NCBI GenBank assembly: GCA_965208015.1
Contig: CBDBNT010000003.1
Span: forward strand, 305,832 to 369,831
DNA from: Dehalococcoidia bacterium
GTDB taxonomy: Bacteria; Chloroflexota; Dehalococcoidia; Lucifugimonadales; UBA3495
Direction of reading: 5' to 3'
DNA length: 64,000 nucleotides
Positions 5,923 through 26,938 of this stretch are shown one piece after another. The position numbers and the translations under genes were made by a program. A model generated the notes under the pieces. It made no database searches. It saw only the letters and a list, made by a program, of their open reading frames with translations, and was not told the origin of the DNA. Every line of letters begins with the position of its first letter. The stretch's first letter is position 1.

Positions 5923-6612
5923 ATGACTACCGCGGACAAGCCCCGCCTCTCCCGGCAAACCATGTGCGACCGCCTTGCCATGGAGTTCCAGGATGGTTGG
6001 ATCGTGAACCTGGGTGTGGGTATGCCAACTCTTTGCTCCAACTACCTGGAGTGCGAGCCGGACAAGGAGATAATCTTTCATTCCGAAAACGGGGTGATCG
6101 GATTTGGTCCGTTGGCCCCGGCCGGGGAAGAAGACCGGCACCTGGTCAACGCCGGCGGCCAGAACGTGGTTGCCCTGCCCGGCATGGCCATCGTGCATCA
6201 CGCCGATTCGTTCGGGATCATCAGGAAGGGCATGGTGGACGTGACGGTGATGGGAGCGTACGAGGTCTCCGAGAACGGCGATTTCGCCAATTGGCGCATA
6301 CCGGTCCGCAAGGGCGGCGGCATCGGCGGCGCCATGGACCTGGCCGCCTGCGCCAAGCGCGTGTTCATCGCCATGGAGCACAACCAGCGCAACGGCGCGC
6401 CTCGCGTGCTCAAGCAATGCAACCTGCCCATCACCGCGCCGGGCGTGGTCAAGCTGCTGGCCACGGATCTGGGCCTGTTCGAGATCACGGAAGACGGCTT
6501 TGTCCTGCGCGAGCACGCCCCCGGCTGGTCCCCGGAGGACATCCAGGAGCAGACCGAGGCGAAACTGATCATCGCCGACGACCTGCGGGAGATGCGGGTG
6601 CGGCCGGCGTAG
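5923..6612 (+). CDS. scoB: 3-oxoacid CoA-transferase subunit B
   Basis: 229 aa with the catalytic-Glu motif FHSENGVIGFGP (SENG) of beta subunits. Confidence 0.9.
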   Translation: MTTADKPRLSRQTMCDRLAMEFQDGWIVNLGVGMPTLCSNYLECEPDKEIIFHSENGVIGFGPLAPAGEEDRHLVNAGGQNVVALPGMAIVHHADSFGIIRKGMVDVTVMGAYEVSENGDFANWRIPVRKGGGIGGAMDLAACAKRVFIAMEHNQRNGAPRVLKQCNLPITAPGVVKLLATDLGLFEITEDGFVLREHAPGWSPEDIQEQTEAKLIIADDLREMRVRPA

Positions 6613-6626
6613 CCACACAGCCAACC

Positions 6627-7763
6627 ATGTACACGTCCTTCAGCATCGAAAACTTCCGCCTGTTTGACCAACTGACGGTGGAACCCCTGGCCCGCGTCAA
6701 CCTGATCGCGGGCCAAAACAACGCCGGCAAGACTGCATTGCTGGAGGCGCTGTGGCTGCACAACGGGCAGAACAACCCGGAGCTAGCGCAACGCATAAAC
6801 TTGTGGCGTGGCTTGCCTGGCGGGGAACCGGGAGAGTTGTTTTCGGAGCTCTTCCGAGATTATCAAACTGACCTGCCCATCAGGTTGACCGCCGTTCGGG
6901 ACCGTGCAATGGGTGCCCGAACCTTGACCATAGTCCGTCAGCTGATAGCAGAGCGCACTAGCACACTAACTCCGACACTTTCCACTGGCGCTGAAACCCG
7001 AAGAACTCCACCGCAAAACATATATGAACATGAAATCGTGTTCGAGTACGTGGATAAAACCGGGGACTTGTTCCCATCCCGCGCTTGGGTAGAACTCACC
7101 CCGTTACCGTTTGAACTGCCCGTCCCTCCCGGCGTCCAATTTGATGGAAACGTAGCTGCCCTTCGCGCTGAAAGAGGGGCCAGCAGCAGTGACCGGAGAA
7201 GTAGCGTTTTTATGCAATCTCTTGGACGCATTGGTCCGCCGGAACTGGCGGCTCGTTTTGGACGCGCAGAAATCGGAGGCTACTTAGGCGATGTGGAAGA
7301 GGTGATGCGTCTGATAGAACCTCGCTTGCGTCGCCTAACCGCTGTACCCAGCGCAGATGGATCGGCATTGGTATATGGCGACGTCGGTACTGGCCGCATT
7401 ATGCCGGTGTCCTTGATGGGCAGCGGTTTCGCACGTTTCTTGGAATTGACACTTGCATTTCAAGAGGTTCGCGACGGCTCAATCCTTATTGATGAAATTG
7501 AGAATGGACTGCACTACGCAGTGCTGAACGGTGTGTGGTGCGCGATCAATCGCCTTTCCCAGAAGTTCAACGTCCAAGTTTTTGCCACCACCCACAGCTA
7601 CGAGTGCATCGTCGCCGCAAACAAAGCGTTCACCGAGATGGAATCAGATGAGCTGCACCTGCATCGTCTATACCGGCGCAGCGGATCAGAGCCAGTAAGG
7701 GCAATAACGTACACCAAGGATATGTTGGATACTAATATCGAATTCTTTTGGGAGTTGAGATGA
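6627..7763 (+). CDS. ABC/SMC-like AAA_21-type ATPase (378 aa), candidate defence-system ATPase
   Basis: MYTSFSIENFRLFD..., Walker A GQNNAGKT, long insert, Walker B SILIDEIENGLH, then FATTHS. Start is ATG 6627; the upstream 221 codons of track ORF 5964..7763 overlap scoB in another frame. G+C is lower than the flanks. Confidence 0.8.
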   Translation: MYTSFSIENFRLFDQLTVEPLARVNLIAGQNNAGKTALLEALWLHNGQNNPELAQRINLWRGLPGGEPGELFSELFRDYQTDLPIRLTAVRDRAMGARTLTIVRQLIAERTSTLTPTLSTGAETRRTPPQNIYEHEIVFEYVDKTGDLFPSRAWVELTPLPFELPVPPGVQFDGNVAALRAERGASSSDRRSSVFMQSLGRIGPPELAARFGRAEIGGYLGDVEEVMRLIEPRLRRLTAVPSADGSALVYGDVGTGRIMPVSLMGSGFARFLELTLAFQEVRDGSILIDEIENGLHYAVLNGVWCAINRLSQKFNVQVFATTHSYECIVAANKAFTEMESDELHLHRLYRRSGSEPVRAITYTKDMLDTNIEFFWELR

Positions 7764-13146: not shown

Positions 13147-13156
13147 GACAACGCGG
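13147..13156. repeat. Left copy of 10-bp target-site duplication GACAACGCGG
   Basis: Identical 10-mer directly abuts the outer ends of both IS inverted repeats (13147-13156 and 14340-14349). Confidence 0.85.
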
Positions 13157-14339
13157 CTCACGCGTACCCACTTTGAGTTGAAGGGTTGAAAAAGGTCGGC
13201 CTCTCCGGGTAAGGAACGGGTTACCAACCACCGTTTCCACCAGGGGAGGACGACCATGCCATGGTATCACCAGGTTGCCACATTTCTGAACGATGCACTG
13301 CCGCAGTTTCGAGCCACTCGTCGCGCCAATCTGGTGCTGCTCACTGCGGCCATTCTCCAGCGGCGCACCCTGGTGATCTCGGTGTTGGTACGGTCGTGGC
13401 ACGTTCAGCTGCCCTATTCTCACCATCAGCGTAAGAAGCGGCTGTTTCGCTTTCTGTCCAACACCGCTTTTGATAGCGTAACGGTGCAGACGGCATTGTT
13501 GGGGACCATTTGTCAGACGGCCCGATTGCGGGGACTGGTTCCCATCATGATTGACTGGTCGGATCTGGGCCAGGGACGCAACGGTTTGTTTGCGGCCGTC
13601 TGCTTTCGGGGTCGTGGGCTGCCCTTGCTCAGCTGGGTGTCCACGCCGGCAGAGTTGGACCCGTCCCAGAACCGAGTGGAGGAGTTCTTCATCGGTCGGC
13701 TGTTGCGCCACTTGCCCGCCAACATCCGGCCCCTGCTGCTGGCGGACCGAGGCTTCGGGCGGGCCAGCCTGCTCCGCTTCGTGCAGCAGATGCCTAACCA
13801 CACCGGCTATCCCGTGGACTACGTAGTGCGTCTCAAGGGCGACGTGGTGGTGCAGCGCGCCGATTATCGCGGTCGGTTGCGGGACTATCCCTTGCGCAAG
13901 GGCCGGATCAACTTCTGGCCGCAAACCCTTTACCGATCCGACGGCGCCGTGGTCATCAATTTGGTCTTGTACTGGGCCCGTGGCCATCGGGAACCCTGGT
14001 ATCTGGCCACGTCCCTGACTGATCCCCGACTGGCAGTGAAGATGTATCGGAAGCGGATGCAACCGGAGCAGTACTTCAAGGATGGCAAGCAGCGCTTCGG
14101 GCTGGACCGCAGCACGGTAACCACCACCGCCCGGCTGCAACGGCTGCTGGTAGCGCTGCTCCTGGCCTGCTGCTTGCTGATACTGGCAGGAATGCGCGCC
14201 TCGCCAACCTTCCGACGACAGGTCTGCTCCCGGGGCAAATTGGGCATCTTACACTTGGGCTACGAATACTACCTGGCCACTCCCGACCCACCCGACGACT
14301 TCTTCACCATTGCACGCCGACAAACCGGGTACGCGTGAG
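13157..14339 (+). mobile_element. IS4-family insertion sequence, 1183 bp, intact
   Basis: Terminal inverted repeats CTCACGCGTACCC (13157-13169) and GGGTACGCGTGAG (14327-14339). Flanked by a 10-bp direct repeat. Single DDE transposase ORF whose stop lies inside the right IR. Confidence 0.85.
13256..14338 (+). CDS. IS4-family DDE transposase
   Basis: 360 aa. DWSD and LADRGFG acidic motifs, and Y-x2-R-x3-E-x6-K signature in YRKRMQPEQYFKDGK. Confidence 0.85.
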   Translation: MPWYHQVATFLNDALPQFRATRRANLVLLTAAILQRRTLVISVLVRSWHVQLPYSHHQRKKRLFRFLSNTAFDSVTVQTALLGTICQTARLRGLVPIMIDWSDLGQGRNGLFAAVCFRGRGLPLLSWVSTPAELDPSQNRVEEFFIGRLLRHLPANIRPLLLADRGFGRASLLRFVQQMPNHTGYPVDYVVRLKGDVVVQRADYRGRLRDYPLRKGRINFWPQTLYRSDGAVVINLVLYWARGHREPWYLATSLTDPRLAVKMYRKRMQPEQYFKDGKQRFGLDRSTVTTTARLQRLLVALLLACCLLILAGMRASPTFRRQVCSRGKLGILHLGYEYYLATPDPPDDFFTIARRQTGYA

Positions 14340-14349
14340 GACAACGCGG
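14340..14349. repeat. Right copy of 10-bp target-site duplication GACAACGCGG
   Basis: See the left copy. Confidence 0.85.
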
Positions 14350-14352
14350 CGG

Positions 14353-14381
14353 TTGGAACAACCCTTCATTTGTGATAGAAT
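14353..14381 (+). promoter_or_regulatory. sigma70-like promoter (TTGGAA-17-TAGAAT) for the SelW-like gene
   Basis: -35 at 14353-14358, -10 at 14376-14381, 44 nt upstream of ATG 14425. Starts 4 nt after the IS target duplication. Confidence 0.45.
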
Positions 14382-14424
14382 TCTCAAAGCAGGCGCCGAT
14401 AATCGGCTCCAAACGGAGGAAAAC

Positions 14425-14712
14425 ATGGAAGGCAAAGTCCAGATCGAGATCACCTACTGCGTGCCTTGACAGCACCACGCTACCGCCACGTGGATGGCGA
14501 ACGAGTTTTTCCGAGCCTACGGCGGCGACGCCGCGATCACCATCTCCCCGCGCGGCCAGAGCATCATGGAAGTGTTCGTGGACGGCGAGAAGATCTTTGA
14601 CAGGAAGGCTGAGGGGAACATCTACCCCGACCTGGGCCGCGTCCGCAAGATGAAGGAAGTCATCTCCGCGAAGATCGCGCAGGTCGACTTGGCTGTGGCT
14701 GCCGACAACTAG
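14425..14712 (+). CDS. SelW/Rdx-family selenoprotein (95 aa) with in-frame UGA (Sec) at 14467-14469
   Basis: GGAGGA SD, then ATG 14425. The sequence MEGKVQIEITYCVP-TGA-QHHATATWMANEFF... gives a C-x-x-U redox motif. The remainder (track ORF 14494..14712) has the Rdx pattern G..MEVFVDGEKIFDRK..G.YP. Confidence 0.8.
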
Positions 14713-14737
14713 TCGAGCCCAATCGCTGAATAACGAG

Positions 14738-14766
14738 CCGCCGCCCCGGCGAGGGCGGCGGTTTTC
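14738..14766 (+). terminator. Rho-independent terminator
   Basis: 9-bp GC stem CCGCCGCCC / GGGCGGCGG with a 6-nt loop, followed by TTTT. Lies between convergent genes. Confidence 0.7.
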
Positions 14767-14795
14767 GTTTGTCCCGGTATGTCGTTAGCATGGAC

Positions 14796-20268: not shown

Positions 20269-20901
20269 TTATCCGCGCACACCCTCATAGGGCCACGGCG
20301 GGGACGGTCGCTTGACCTCGCCCACGTGCTTGTGGTCGGCCATCATCTCGACCAGATTGTCGTAGATGGGTCCCGACTCGTCGTCGGACGGAATGAACAT
20401 CTTGACGAAGGCGGAGTTGCCGTTCGGGAAGACATAGAGGGGCACGCCGAAGGCGCCGTGCACTTCCACGGCCTCGGTGTGGCTCTCGCCGATCTCGCGG
20501 AGCACGTCCGGATCGGCCAGGTCCTCGGCAAACTGGCCCATGTCAACGCCCGACGCCTCGGCCACGGCGTTGATGGCGTCCGCGTCGGTCAGGTCGATGC
20601 GATCTTCGTGGCGAGCCTTCAGCAGGTTGATGAAGAAGCGGTCGAAGATCTCCTCGCCCTGGCGCTGCGCGGCGATGCCGGCCCGCAGCTCGAGCAGCGT
20701 GTTGTCCGAGTCGTCCTGCTCCCAGTACTTGAACCCGTCGTCGTTGTTGTTGTCGTGATTTACCTGGACCAGCGAGAATGGCTTCAGATCCACGGCGATT
20801 TCGTGGTCGGTATTCTCGCGTACTTTCGCCCACCACATGGCAGCGTTGTACACGAAGGGTCAACGAAAGTCGTAATAAACGGTGAAATCAGTTTCGGCCA
20901 T
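20269..20901 (-). CDS. DsbA-like thioredoxin-fold selenoprotein (210 aa) with in-frame UGA (Sec) at 20862-20860
   Basis: GGGAGG SD 8 nt before ATG 20901. The sequence MAETDFTVYYDFR-TGA-PFVYNAAMWW... is in frame with track ORF 20269..20853. The TGA sits at the redox-Cys position of the DsbA/FrnE-type (F/Y)xDFxCPxxY motif. Confidence 0.7.
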
Positions 20902-21354: not shown

Positions 21355-22641
21355 ATGGTTACCACCTTTAACGAAAACCTGTTTTCCCCTGAAGTCATCC
21401 AGGACCCGTATACGTACTTCGGCCGGATGCGCGAGGAGGATCCGGTTCACTGGAATGACCCCTACAAGCTGTGGGTCATCACCAAGTACAAGGACTTGGT
21501 TTGGGTCACCCGGCGCCCCGAAGCGTTCTCTTCCGAGGTATTCCACCGCGACCCGTTGCCTCCGTACCCTTCGATCGACGAGTCGGACATGGGCCTCTAC
21601 GAGGACGTGCGGAACTTCTTCAGCCAGTGGTTCATTCAGACCGACCGGCGCGCGGTCAGCACTCACGAGCACATTCGCGAGCACGGCGGCCCGGACCACA
21701 CCGACATGCGGAAGGTCATCCACGGCTACTTCACCCCCAAGGCCATGGAACTCTGGCGCCCGCTGGTGCAATCGGCCATCAAGCAGTTGCTGGACGAGGC
21801 CGAAGAGCGCGGCCACATGGACGTGATGCGCGACTACGCTACGCCGCTGCCGCTGCTGGTGATCGCCGCCATGATGGGCATCGAGACCTACGACCGGCAG
21901 TTCATCCGCTCGCTGGCCGAGAAACTGCTGTTCATCGGCCGGGGCAACGCCGACCGGATGCAGCCGCTGTCCGAAGGCATCACCGAGCTTCAGGACTACC
22001 TGCGGCCCATGGTCAAAGCCCGCCTGGACAATCCCAACGGCGACCTGCTGGACAAGATGACCGACGCCGCCCGCACTACCAACGCGGCCGGACAGCGCAT
22101 CATGGACGAAGAGCAGGTGGTCGCCAACGCCATCCTGTTGCTCCTGGCCGGTCACGAGACCACCATCAACCTGATCTGCAACGGCACCCGGGCGTTCATG
22201 GAGCACCCCGACCAGTGGGAACTGTTCAAGAGCGACCCCGCCGGCAAGATGATCCGCGCTACCGAGGAGTGCCTGCGATACGACCCGCCGGTCAAGTCCA
22301 TCACCCGCATCGCCGGTGAGGACGTCGAACTGGGCGGCAAGCTCATCCAGAAGGACGAGCGGATGCGCTGGTTCGTCACCTCCGCCAACCGTGACCCCGA
22401 AGTGTTCGACCGCCCCGACGACTTCGACGTCGAGCGGTATCCGAATCCTCACGTGGCCTTTGGCAGCGGCATTCACCACTGCCTGGGCGCGACCCTGGCG
22501 CGGCTGGAAGGGCAGGAAGCCTTCAAGGCCCTGGCCGAGCGGTTCCCGAACCTCAACATGAACTGCAACTCCGACGACCTCACCTATACCTCCAGCATCA
22601 CTTTCCGCACGCTGGAGACGCTGCCGGTGAGCCTGTCGTAA
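21355..22641 (+). CDS. Cytochrome P450 (paralog 1)
   Basis: I-helix LLLLAGHETT, ExxR (ECLRYD), heme loop FGSGIHHCLGATLARLE. Confidence 0.9.
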   Translation: MVTTFNENLFSPEVIQDPYTYFGRMREEDPVHWNDPYKLWVITKYKDLVWVTRRPEAFSSEVFHRDPLPPYPSIDESDMGLYEDVRNFFSQWFIQTDRRAVSTHEHIREHGGPDHTDMRKVIHGYFTPKAMELWRPLVQSAIKQLLDEAEERGHMDVMRDYATPLPLLVIAAMMGIETYDRQFIRSLAEKLLFIGRGNADRMQPLSEGITELQDYLRPMVKARLDNPNGDLLDKMTDAARTTNAAGQRIMDEEQVVANAILLLLAGHETTINLICNGTRAFMEHPDQWELFKSDPAGKMIRATEECLRYDPPVKSITRIAGEDVELGGKLIQKDERMRWFVTSANRDPEVFDRPDDFDVERYPNPHVAFGSGIHHCLGATLARLEGQEAFKALAERFPNLNMNCNSDDLTYTSSITFRTLETLPVSLS

Positions 22642-22809: not shown

Positions 22810-24069
22810 ATGGTCAGCACTATCAACGACAACCCATTCTCTCTGGAAGCGATGTACCAACCCTACGAGTTTTTCGCGCGGCTGCGCGATTGGGAGCCGG
22901 TACACTACAACGAGGAGTACGAGGTCTGGATGGTCACGGACTGGGAGCACCTGGTATGGGTGACCCGGCACCCGGAGGTCTTCTCGTCCAGCGTGTTCGC
23001 CCGGGACCCCCGGCCGCCGAACCCGCCCATCGACGAAGACGACATGGAGATCTACAACTACATCAAGAAGTGGCAGGTCTCCCGGTTTATCCAGCACGAC
23101 CAGAAGCGGTACAACCCCGGGGTCAGCGGGCCCGACCACGTGGACATGCGCCGGGTGATGCACGGTTACTTCACCCCCAAGTCCATGGAAATGTGGCGCC
23201 CCCTGGTTCAGTCGGCCATCGATGAACTGCTGGACGCCGTGCAGGAAAAGGGCCGCATGGACGTGATGGCCGATCTGGCCACGCCGCTGCCCCTGCTGGT
23301 CATCGCGCGGATGCTGGGCATCCCGGACAGCGACCGCCCCATTATGCGCCGGCTGGCCAAGGACCTGCGCCACCTGAACCGGACGGGCCCAAACCGCATG
23401 GGTCCCCTATCCGAATCGGTGCAGAACCTGCAGGACTACCTGGGCCCGCTGTGCGACGAACGCATCGCCAACCCCAAGGACGACCTGATCTCGGTCGTTG
23501 CCGAAGGGGCGCGGCGCGGCATCTTCGACCGCGACATGGTGGTGAACAACGTGATGCTGCTGCTCTCCGCGGGTCACGAGACCACCATCAACCTGATCTG
23601 CAACGGCACCCTGGCCTTCACCCAGCACCCGGACCAGTGGGCGATCCTGAAGTCGGACCCTGAAGGCAAGACCGTGCGCGCCACCGAAGAGTGCCTGCGG
23701 TACGACTCGCCGGTGAAGTCCATCCAGCGCATCGCCATGGAGGACATGGAGCTCAACGGCCAGCAGATCAAGGAGAATGACCGGGTGCGGTGGTTCATCT
23801 CCGGGGCCAACCGGGATCCCAAGGTGTTCGACCGGGCGGACGACTTCGACGTCGAGCGCTACCCCAACATGCACGTGGCCTTCGGCAGCGGCATCCACCA
23901 CTGCCTCGGCGCGACCCTGGCGCGGCTGGAAGGGCAGGAGATATTCCGCAACCTGGCCAACCGCTTCGAGAGCCTGGAACTGGAAGTCCCGGCCGAGACG
24001 CTGGAATACGACCAGCTCATCGGCCTGCGGGCGCTGGAATCGCTGCCGGTGACGGTCACCAACGCATAG
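22810..24069 (+). CDS. Cytochrome P450 (paralog 2)
   Basis: LLLSAGHETT, ECLRYD, FGSGIHHCLGATLARLE. Confidence 0.9.
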   Translation: MVSTINDNPFSLEAMYQPYEFFARLRDWEPVHYNEEYEVWMVTDWEHLVWVTRHPEVFSSSVFARDPRPPNPPIDEDDMEIYNYIKKWQVSRFIQHDQKRYNPGVSGPDHVDMRRVMHGYFTPKSMEMWRPLVQSAIDELLDAVQEKGRMDVMADLATPLPLLVIARMLGIPDSDRPIMRRLAKDLRHLNRTGPNRMGPLSESVQNLQDYLGPLCDERIANPKDDLISVVAEGARRGIFDRDMVVNNVMLLLSAGHETTINLICNGTLAFTQHPDQWAILKSDPEGKTVRATEECLRYDSPVKSIQRIAMEDMELNGQQIKENDRVRWFISGANRDPKVFDRADDFDVERYPNMHVAFGSGIHHCLGATLARLEGQEIFRNLANRFESLELEVPAETLEYDQLIGLRALESLPVTVTNA

Positions 24070-24131: not shown

Positions 24132-24207
24132 ACCCATTTAATGGCGCTGTACGGTCAGCTGTAAGCCGGACCAAGCGCGAACGACTGCACTTCGTGCGAA
24201 TATCGGT

Positions 24208-24213
24208 TATAAT
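24208..24213 (+). promoter_or_regulatory. -10 box TATAAT for P450 gene 3
   Basis: TATAATCGGC is identical to the P450-2 -10 context. The -35 is poor. Confidence 0.5.
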
Positions 24214-24283
24214 CGGCCAATCTCAAGGCGCTGCGGGCTGTTGGGCCGGCAGCCATGTCAACGTACCACCGGAGGTACAACCA

Positions 24284-25555
24284 ATGGTAACCACCTTCAA
24301 CGACAATCCGTTTTCGCCGGAAGCGATCTACAAGCCCTATGACTTTTACAATCGGCTGCGCGAGCACCAGCCGGTGTATTACAACGAGCAACTCGAGGTG
24401 TGGATGATCACCTCGTGGGAACACTTGGTGTGGGTCACTCGGCATCCGGAGGCATTCTCGTCCAGCGTGTACGCGCGGGACACGCGCGCCCCGAACCCAC
24501 CGATCGATGAAGACGACATGGAACTCTACAACTTCATCAAGAAGTGGCAGGTTTCACGGTTCATCCAGCACGACCAGCGCCGGTACAATCCCGACGTCAG
24601 CGGCTCGGACCACATCGATATGCGACGGGTGATGCACGGCTACTTCACCCCCAAGTCCATCGAAATGTGGCGCCCCCTGGTGCAGTCGGCCATCGACGAG
24701 TTGCTGGACGCCGTCGAAGCGAAGGGTCGGATGGACGTAATGGCCGACCTGGCCACCCCGCTGCCTTTGCTGGTCATCGCCCGGATGCTGGGCATCCCGG
24801 ACAGTGAGCGGGAGCGGCTGCGCGAACTGGCCAAGGACCTGCGATTCCTCAACCGTGAGGGTCCCGACCGCATGAAGCCGCTGACTCAGGCGGTGCAGAA
24901 CCTGCAGGACTTCATTGCGCCAATGGTCGAGGACCGGATGACCAACCCCGAGAACTTCGATGCAACCGACCTGATGTCCGTGGTCTGCGAAGGTGAACGG
25001 CAGGGGGTGTTCAACCGGGATATGACCGTCAACAACATCATGCTGCTGCTGTCAGCCGGACACGAGACCACCATCAACCTGATCTGCAACGGCACGCTGG
25101 CATTCACCCAGCACCCGGAACAGTGGGCAATCCTGAAGTCCGATCCGGAAGGCAAGACCGTCCGCGCGACTGAAGAGGCGCTCCGGTATGACTCGCCTGT
25201 CCGGTCCATCCAGCGCATCGCGATGGATGATATCGAGCTGAACGATCAGCTGATCAAGAAGAATGACCGGGTCCGCTGGTTCATCCCCGGCGCCAACCGT
25301 GACCCCAAGGTTTTCGACCGCGCCGATGACTTTGACATCGAACGGTACCCGAACCAGCACGTCGCTTTTGGCAGCGGCGTCCATCACTGCTTGGGCGCAA
25401 CCCTGGCCCGGCTGGAGGGTCAGGAGATCTTCCGGAACCTGGCCAACCGCTTCGAGAAGGTCGAGCTGGAGATCCCGGTGGAAGAGGTCGAGTACGACCA
25501 CGTCCTCACCTTCCGCGCGGTGGAGAGCCTCCCGGTGAAGGTGACCAGCGCATAG
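24284..25555 (+). CDS. Cytochrome P450 (paralog 3)
   Basis: Start ATG 24284 (MVTTFNDNPF) after GGAGG. LLLSAGHETT, EALRYD, FGSGVHHCLGATLARLE. Confidence 0.9.
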   Translation: MVTTFNDNPFSPEAIYKPYDFYNRLREHQPVYYNEQLEVWMITSWEHLVWVTRHPEAFSSSVYARDTRAPNPPIDEDDMELYNFIKKWQVSRFIQHDQRRYNPDVSGSDHIDMRRVMHGYFTPKSIEMWRPLVQSAIDELLDAVEAKGRMDVMADLATPLPLLVIARMLGIPDSERERLRELAKDLRFLNREGPDRMKPLTQAVQNLQDFIAPMVEDRMTNPENFDATDLMSVVCEGERQGVFNRDMTVNNIMLLLSAGHETTINLICNGTLAFTQHPEQWAILKSDPEGKTVRATEEALRYDSPVRSIQRIAMDDIELNDQLIKKNDRVRWFIPGANRDPKVFDRADDFDIERYPNQHVAFGSGVHHCLGATLARLEGQEIFRNLANRFEKVELEIPVEEVEYDHVLTFRAVESLPVKVTSA

Positions 25556-25708: not shown

Positions 25709-26938
25709 ATGCCCGCAAACATCCACGACGACCTGTTCGCCGCCGAGGCGATCCGCGATCCGTACGGCTATTTTGGAGCCCTGCGGGCCGAGGCGCCGGT
25801 TCACTGGAACGAGCAGTACCAGATGTGGGTGGTGACCAGCTACGAGCGGCTGGTGTGGACGGCCCGGCATCCCGAATACTTCTCCTCCGAAGTGGCGCTG
25901 CGCGACAACAAACCGCCTTCTCCCACGATCCCCGAAGAGGACATGGAACTCTTTGGCGCCGTGCGGAATTGGATGGCGGCCCGGTTCACCCAGAACGACG
26001 GCGCGAAGCACAAGGAAAAGCGCAAGGTGGTTCACGGCTTCTTCACGCCCAAGGCGATGGAAACTTGGCGTCCGTTGGTCCGCCAGACGGTGAACGACCT
26101 GCTGGACGACCTTCAGGGCGCCGGCCGCATGGACGTCATGCATGACTTCGCCACGCCGCTCACCTACAGCATCATCGCCGGCCTGATGGATATACCGCCC
26201 AGCGACCGCGCCTTCGTCAAGGAGCTGTGCAGTAGCATGTGCGGTTTCGACGGGAACCAGCCGGACCGGATCCGGATGTACGCGGAGGGCGTGCAGGCGG
26301 TGACCGACTACTTGGCTCCCATCGTGGCCGAGCGGGTCCGGGACCCGGGCGACGACCTGCTGTCGGTGATCTGCAAAGGCGAGATCATGGGAGCGTACAC
26401 CCGCGATGAGGTGCTGGCCAATGCCCTCCTGCTCCTGGTCGCGGGACACGAAACCACCAACGACCTGATTTCCAACGGAGTGCTGGCATTCGCACAACAC
26501 TCCGACCAGTTTGACCTCCTGCGAACCGACCCTGACGCCCACATCGTTAACGCCGTCGAGGAAGTGCTGCGATACGACTCTCCGCTGAAATCAATCCAGC
26601 GTGTCGCGACCCAGGACGTGGACATGGGCGACGGGCAGCAGGTTGGCAAGGACGACCGCGTGCGTTGGGTGATCTCGTCGGCCAACCGCGATCCGGAGGT
26701 CTTTGAGGAGCCGGACGCCCTGGATATCACGCGCAATCCGAACCCCCACGTGGCCTTCGGCAGCGGCGTTCACCACTGCCTGGGTGCCACCCTGGCGCGG
26801 CTGGAAGGGCAGGAAGCCTTCGCCGAACTGGCACGCCGCTTCGAGGGGTTCGAACTGGAAACCGATCCCAACGACTTGGAATACCTGCCCAGCGTGGGGC
26901 AGCGCACCCTGCTGAACCTGCCGGTTGCAACACGCTAG
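25709..26938 (+). CDS. Cytochrome P450 (paralog 4, most divergent)
   Basis: LLLVAGHETT, EVLRYD, FGSGVHHCLGATLARLE. Confidence 0.9.
   Translation: MPANIHDDLFAAEAIRDPYGYFGALRAEAPVHWNEQYQMWVVTSYERLVWTARHPEYFSSEVALRDNKPPSPTIPEEDMELFGAVRNWMAARFTQNDGAKHKEKRKVVHGFFTPKAMETWRPLVRQTVNDLLDDLQGAGRMDVMHDFATPLTYSIIAGLMDIPPSDRAFVKELCSSMCGFDGNQPDRIRMYAEGVQAVTDYLAPIVAERVRDPGDDLLSVICKGEIMGAYTRDEVLANALLLLVAGHETTNDLISNGVLAFAQHSDQFDLLRTDPDAHIVNAVEEVLRYDSPLKSIQRVATQDVDMGDGQQVGKDDRVRWVISSANRDPEVFEEPDALDITRNPNPHVAFGSGVHHCLGATLARLEGQEAFAELARRFEGFELETDPNDLEYLPSVGQRTLLNLPVATR

Follow-up and report, generated by a model that had tools for sequence, protein, structure and literature searches.

A SelW-like (Rdx) gene with an in-frame UGA, probably a selenocysteine codon, and a putative SECIS hairpin in a Dehalococcoidia genome

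Positions 14425-14712 (+ strand) of the window, that is, of the whole 64-kb stretch of marine SAR202 (Dehalococcoidia) DNA analysed here, very probably constitute a monocistronic gene that encodes a SelW-like (Rdx) protein of 95 residues, in which the active site would be Cys12-Val-Pro-Sec15 and an in-frame UGA would be read as selenocysteine (Sec) with the help of a hairpin at 14484-14499. Sequence comparison points to this reading, and a structural model to the family. Decoding would proceed at the UGA of 14467-14469, where the hairpin would recruit SelB-GTP-Sec-tRNASec to the paused ribosome. The product would be a small thiol/selenol oxidoreductase, presumably cycling between a Cys12-Sec15 selenenylsulfide and its reduced form. 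The chief value of the case is a correction of annotation. The gene is also one more well-supported case for the selenoprotein-rich SAR202/Dehalococcoidia, it displays clean base-pair covariation in a coding-region SECIS, and the consensus of its hairpin could help to find further Sec genes in the lineage.

The coding sequence is preceded by a Shine-Dalgarno sequence, GGAGGA (14415-14420, + strand), which ends 4 nt before the ATG at 14425 and is kept as GGAGGAA in relatives. From this ATG the frame reads MEGKVQIEITYCVP-TGA(14467-14469)-QHHATATWMANEFF... and runs to a TAG at 14710-14712, the complete translation of 14425-14712 being MEGKVQIEITYCVP*QHHATATWMANEFFRAYGGDAAITISPRGQSIMEVFVDGEKIFDRKAEGNIYPDLGRVRKMKEVISAKIAQVDLAVAADN*, where the first asterisk, residue 15, is the presumed Sec. 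The redox motif Cys12-Val-Pro-Sec15 (TGC GTG CCT TGA; 14458-14469, + strand), with the TGC of Cys12 at 14458-14460 and the TGA of codon 15 at 14467-14469, is assigned from conservation of the TGA and from alignment to Cys-containing homologues. A preliminary description of this DNA had placed the ribosome-binding site, the start codon and the TGA at these same positions and had remarked that a program-made list of ORFs holds only 14494-14712 (+ strand); all of this reads as described. The listed ORF, 72 residues long, is an artefact of taking TGA as a stop, and ORF callers arrive at it because of the in-frame TGA, which is most likely a Sec codon.

A consensus scan of the flanks identifies a promoter-like sequence, TTGGAA-17 nt-TAGAAT with a TG-extended -10 (14353-14381, + strand), that may drive the gene, and an intrinsic-terminator-like stem-loop of 12 pairs followed by a T-rich tail (14735-14770, + strand). 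Together, the two elements frame what appears to be a monocistronic unit starting upstream of ATG 14425. The promoter-like sequence is kept in the related loci L001, L002 and L010. So is the 5' leader at 14382-14414 (..TCTCAAAGCAGGCGCCGA..), although the flanking DNA of these genomes is only ~90% identical, L010 being still more distant. A ~1.18-kb insertion (13158-14339) lies upstream of the gene, 3 nt from the -35 hexamer; it contains a DDE transposase ORF (13256-14338; PF01609), has an 11-bp direct repeat, GACAACGCGGC, on either side (13147-13157 and 14340-14350), and does not occur in L002, a locus that is 99% related.

The assignment of the product to the SelW/Rdx family of CxxU proteins, already proposed in the preliminary description, is borne out by profile searches as well as by fold comparison. 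With U written as C, the 95-residue protein scores 49 bits against Pfam Rdx (PF10262; cut-off 22.6; residues 6-72), whereas the 72-residue ORF reaches 19.5 bits and falls below the cut-off. The best NCBIfam matches are the SelT/SelW/SelH models TIGR02174 (CXXU_selWTH; 28.5 against a cut-off of 34.2) and NF041051 (SelTWH_Campy; 32.9 against a cut-off of 88), and since both scores are sub-threshold the protein is not filed under either model. A phmmer search of PDB sequences retrieves 2oka, 2obk, 2fa8, 2ojl, 2p0g and 3dex (E = 4e-8 to 8e-5), in which the YCTQC of 2oka, 2obk and 2fa8 aligns with the YCVP-U of the present protein. Cys occupies the UGA position in all six SelW-related PDB chains with alignments shown or matched, and this alignment of YCxxC with YCVP-U places the TGA on the second redox Cys.

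An AlphaFold2 model of the ortholog P0008, computed from a 29-sequence alignment (pLDDT 91, pTM 0.81), shows the predicted order b1(5-12), CVPx, a1(18-35), b2, b3, b4, a2. Foldseek ranks 2obk, 2oka, 2fa8, 2p0g, 2ojl, 3dex and mouse SelW 2npb as the closest structures to this model (TM 0.7-0.86), while thioredoxins reach a TM of only ~0.5. Sequence and model alike thus indicate that 14425-14712 encodes a genuine SelW/Rdx-family small redox protein, for which a thioredoxin-like fold is predicted.

In a scan of one genome per species, 207 genomes encode a relative; the best 80 of these are all Dehalococcoidia, SAR202 or Chloroflexota MAGs, and the source names of public matches include the sponge Geodia barretti. 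All 88 motif-matching sequences, namely the window itself, 80 loci from genomes taken one per species and 7 further copies in other assemblies, retain the TGA, and it is present also in L060 and L064, two loci that the motif pattern missed. Across 86 distinct orthologous genes, the amino acids of codons 3-13 are fixed and the third positions vary freely, which is the signature of a translated region, and the same combination of fixed amino acids with synonymous variation extends over both sides of the TGA. The orthologs keep the upstream CxxU strand and do not start at the downstream Met, the contrary of which the preliminary description would have taken as a refutation. Cys-containing orthologs at the U position had been named there as a check, and beyond the solved bacterial structures Cys forms are found among distant full-length homologues, 20 out of 29 of which carry Cys at the aligned position; one such form is P0123, YCVPCGHHGVATW (YCVPC), and P0125, P0127, P0131, P0133, P0136, P0137 and P0140 are similar to it.

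These patterns weigh against the interpretation in which translation really ends at the TGA, so that ATG 14494 would begin the actual 72-residue product and the 14 codons before it would belong to an untranslated leader or a separate mini-ORF. Such an arrangement matches the output of ORF callers and most public annotations, and genes of this genome commonly end in TGA. It would, however, leave a fragment below the Pfam cut-off that is devoid of strand b1 and of the redox motif, the Shine-Dalgarno sequence stands before ATG 14425 with no such sequence before ATG 14494 on direct reading, codons 2-14 keep their amino acids in the 86 genes while synonymous change is free, and the Cys-containing homologues read straight through the TGA position. 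We consider a true stop very improbable. Smaller still, and close to negligible, is the chance that a nonsense mutation has turned the SelW-like gene into a pseudogene, as an in-frame stop 14 codons into the domain could suggest: the same TGA recurs in all 88 matched sequences, 80 of them from one-per-species genomes, purifying selection acts on both of its flanks, and the promoter-like site, the Shine-Dalgarno sequence and the terminator are intact. Metagenome contigs scanned with the degenerate pattern TGACARCAYCAYGCNACNGCNACNTGG add 78 loci, all with the TGA, a count that shows only the wide spread of such genes since the pattern required TGA.

Trp, Cys or Arg, in place of Sec, could also be inserted at the UGA by way of a reassigned code or near-cognate suppression, and some public records look that way. 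The 120 public protein clusters listed from NCBI, ENA and JGI hold mostly the truncated form of 71-73 residues, some examples of which nevertheless bear the JGI label "predicted Rdx family selenoprotein"; as a consequence of the truncation, the active-site strand and the Sec residue are absent from these records. A few full-length ENA calls (P0001-P0007), from very short contigs, translate the TGA as W, and in the cluster P0008, of 16 members, Arg replaces the Sec along with other odd substitutions. The W calls are, however, most likely code-4 calls on contigs of <1 kb, and the Arg of P0008 may be a sequencing error or a real CGA variant. TGA is a usual stop in the window, where it ends 14 of the 32 long ORFs, which excludes a reassigned code. 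Moreover, the residue aligned in homologues is a redox Cys, the classic Sec/Cys pairing, a covarying hairpin with a conserved loop G lies at SECIS distance, and SelA, SelB and SelD are encoded by related bins. Insertion of a standard amino acid is accordingly given only a slim chance, and selenocysteine remains the preferred reading of codon 15.

Sec insertion in bacteria calls attention to the RNA that follows the UGA, where the preliminary description had offered two candidate hairpins. One of them has held up: CGCCA (14484-88) can pair with UGGCG (14495-99) around the loop C-GUGG-A, forming a SECIS-type hairpin of five G/C-rich pairs (14484-14499, + strand) whose stem begins 14 nt and whose loop begins 19 nt after the UGA. 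Comparative evidence supports it in two ways. Firstly, synonymous change is suppressed at the hairpin: in the 86 genes, five of six four-fold codons within 14464-14499 are invariant (P14 CCT, T20 ACC, A21 GCC, T22 ACG and A25 GCG), whereas the rest of codons 1-64 includes 21 four-fold or six-fold codons of which not one is invariant (Fisher p = 7.4e-5, a value that is indicative only because the sequences are related). Two bases at third codon positions, C14487 of the stem and G14490 of the loop, never vary either. Secondly, among the 107 distinct sequences of the covariation set, assembled with the metagenome loci, 14484 and 14499 pair without exception, 90 times as C-G, 13 times as G-C and 4 times as U-A, a covariation reproduced by no shuffle and by no slid register. 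The G-C form belongs to the YCVA/Val clade and the U-A form to the YCVP/Met clade, which implies at least two independent compensatory double changes. The other four stem pairs (G-C, C-G, C-G and A-U) are invariant, so that the covariation rests on one base pair, the only one of the five that can vary.

Folding, named in the preliminary description as a way to check the hairpins, is informative in its comparative form: RNAalifold independently gives the same five pairs of 14484-14499. On the single sequence the result is not significant, either for 14460-14530 (71 nt, z = 0.63) or for 14467-14506 (40 nt, z = -0.83), and we consequently rely on the comparative evidence. In Val variants (GUG), C14489-G14494 forms a sixth pair and leaves a GUGG tetraloop. 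A small apical loop with a G is a common feature of bacterial SECIS elements (PMC1088965). Judged from these sequence comparisons, the putative element at 14484-14499 most likely acts as a bacterial SECIS. No Rfam SECIS family matches it at gathering or E-value thresholds.

The other candidate of the preliminary description, 14475-79/14489-93, finds no positive support. It fits the alignment, but it varies only by one-sided C-to-U wobble changes, no better than shuffles, and leaves the covariation of 14484:14499 unexplained. The 9-pair minimum free energy fold of the window's own 40 nt (14478-86/14490-99, -10.2 kcal/mol) is likewise rejected, being broken in 13-22 sequences at each varying pair. 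RNAalifold also draws a 4-pair helix, 14459-14462/14477-14480, that holds the UGA in its loop and shows one-sided C-to-U wobble only.

Beyond the close relatives, a hairpin in this position is also present in the more remote Sec forms L169/L170 and L172; its loop falls on the Trp codon, and its stem sequences are different. A hairpin, UAGCC-ACAU-GGCUA, is also found in the Cys-form L173 (301-570; YCVPC, codon TGT) where Sec forms have the SECIS, which means that the presence of a hairpin alone is not diagnostic; it may be a fossil SECIS left by Sec-to-Cys replacement. In L174 a hairpin lies further 3'.

The second TGA-containing gene of the window, reported in the preliminary description, is real. 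It lies on the minus strand (20901-20269, TGA 20862-20860) and encodes a DsbA-like, thioredoxin-fold protein with the N-terminus MAETDFTVYYDFR-U-PFVY, which scores 58 bits on Pfam DSBA (PF01323) with U written as C and which the ORF list cuts to 194 aa. Its active site, U-P-F-V, would hold one Sec only, which lines up with the active-site Cys (CPYA) of PDB 7dk9. Both L001 and L002 retain this TGA, and a stem-loop stands 3' of the UGA (z = -2.1). A search of the window for further TGA-interrupted genes, based on GC3 and CxxU-type motifs, proved too noisy, with 83 candidates, and missed this gene.

At 20 nt after its UGA the DsbA-like gene has GCCAUGUGGUGG, near-identical to the hairpin motif of the SelW-like gene. 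The corresponding pattern GCCAYGTGG(N)TGG has just two matches in the 64 kb, at 14485-14497 (+) and 20830-20841 (-), both ~15-20 nt after the in-frame TGA of a thioredoxin-fold gene. Shuffles expect 0.17 matches. The count is suggestive only, since it was from these very sites that the pattern was drawn up post hoc. Tentatively, and with more doubt than confidence, one can propose that SAR202/Dehalococcoidia use an unusually compact, lineage-specific SECIS, GCCA-YGUGG(N)-UGG, with a 5-6 bp stem ~14 nt after the UGA, that would be common to the unrelated SelW-like and DsbA-like genes and would fix Ala-x-Trp-x-Ala downstream of Sec. Were this so, a plain search for the motif might suffice to uncover the large, mostly unannotated selenoproteomes of abundant marine and sponge-associated bacteria.

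In agreement with the preliminary description, which had noted the lack of sel genes in the window, the 64 kb contain no tRNA-Sec, and no SelA, SelB or SelD domain is found among their long ORFs. COGs for SelA, SelB and SelD are reported for SAR202 bins 87 and 22 (Slaby et al. 2017, PMC5649159, Table S4), which correspond to L033 and L089 of our set, and both of these carry the orthologous TGA gene. BSepDB has entries for Dehalococcoidia MAGs in which selenoprotein genes number 46-49 (PMC13326102).

With 62.7% G+C, the window is chromosomal DNA that includes gyrB, valS, aroC, aroE and a row of P450 genes. Four cytochrome P450 genes follow one another on the + strand, at 21355-22641, 22810-24069, 24194-25555 and 25709-26938. 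An AAA_15/AAA_21 ATPase ORF (5964-7763, + strand) has an unusually low GC3 of 0.53, against ~0.8 in its neighbours. In L001 and L002 this region has another arrangement, and it may form an island that is variable or mobile.

Compared with known systems, the present protein stands closest to the bacterial SelW-like/Rdx structures (2fa8 Atu0228, 2oka, 2obk, 2p0g, 2ojl and 3dex), with which it has in common PF10262, the approximate size and the predicted b1-a1-b2-b3-b4-a2 fold with the redox motif at the b1/a1 junction. These structures have CxxC, whereas here UGA/Sec takes the second position, and identity in the structural alignment is only ~19-30%. Mouse SelW (2npb) has the same fold (TM 0.76) at 17% identity. 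The active site of mammalian selenoprotein W is CxxU, as here, but the mammalian SECIS resides in the 3' UTR and works with SBP2/eEFSec, whereas the present element lies inside the coding region just after the UGA. In this respect it resembles the fdhF-type SECIS of E. coli, a hairpin immediately 3' of the UGA in the ORF whose apical-loop G and U are contacted by SelB. Relative to that type, the present element is shorter, with 5-6 pairs and a GUGG-containing loop, its spacing is 14 nt instead of 11 nt, and no bulged U is evident in it.

SelW-like CxxU proteins are known in many bacteria (PMC1794560), and SelW-like, with 48 genes, headed the selenoprotein families of the Sargasso Sea data in abundance (Zhang, Fomenko and Gladyshev 2005, PMC1088965). 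By description, the present gene is like the members of that marine metagenome set in its CxxU motif, its in-frame UGA, its small hairpin with an apical-loop G and its occurrence in marine bacteria; it belongs to a SAR202/Dehalococcoidia clade that includes sponge-associated genomes. The kind of gene is thus well known, and nothing is changed in what is known of SelW-like proteins and Sec decoding. The present case stands out by its clade, by the compact hairpin with a GUGG loop and by having been mis-annotated systematically.
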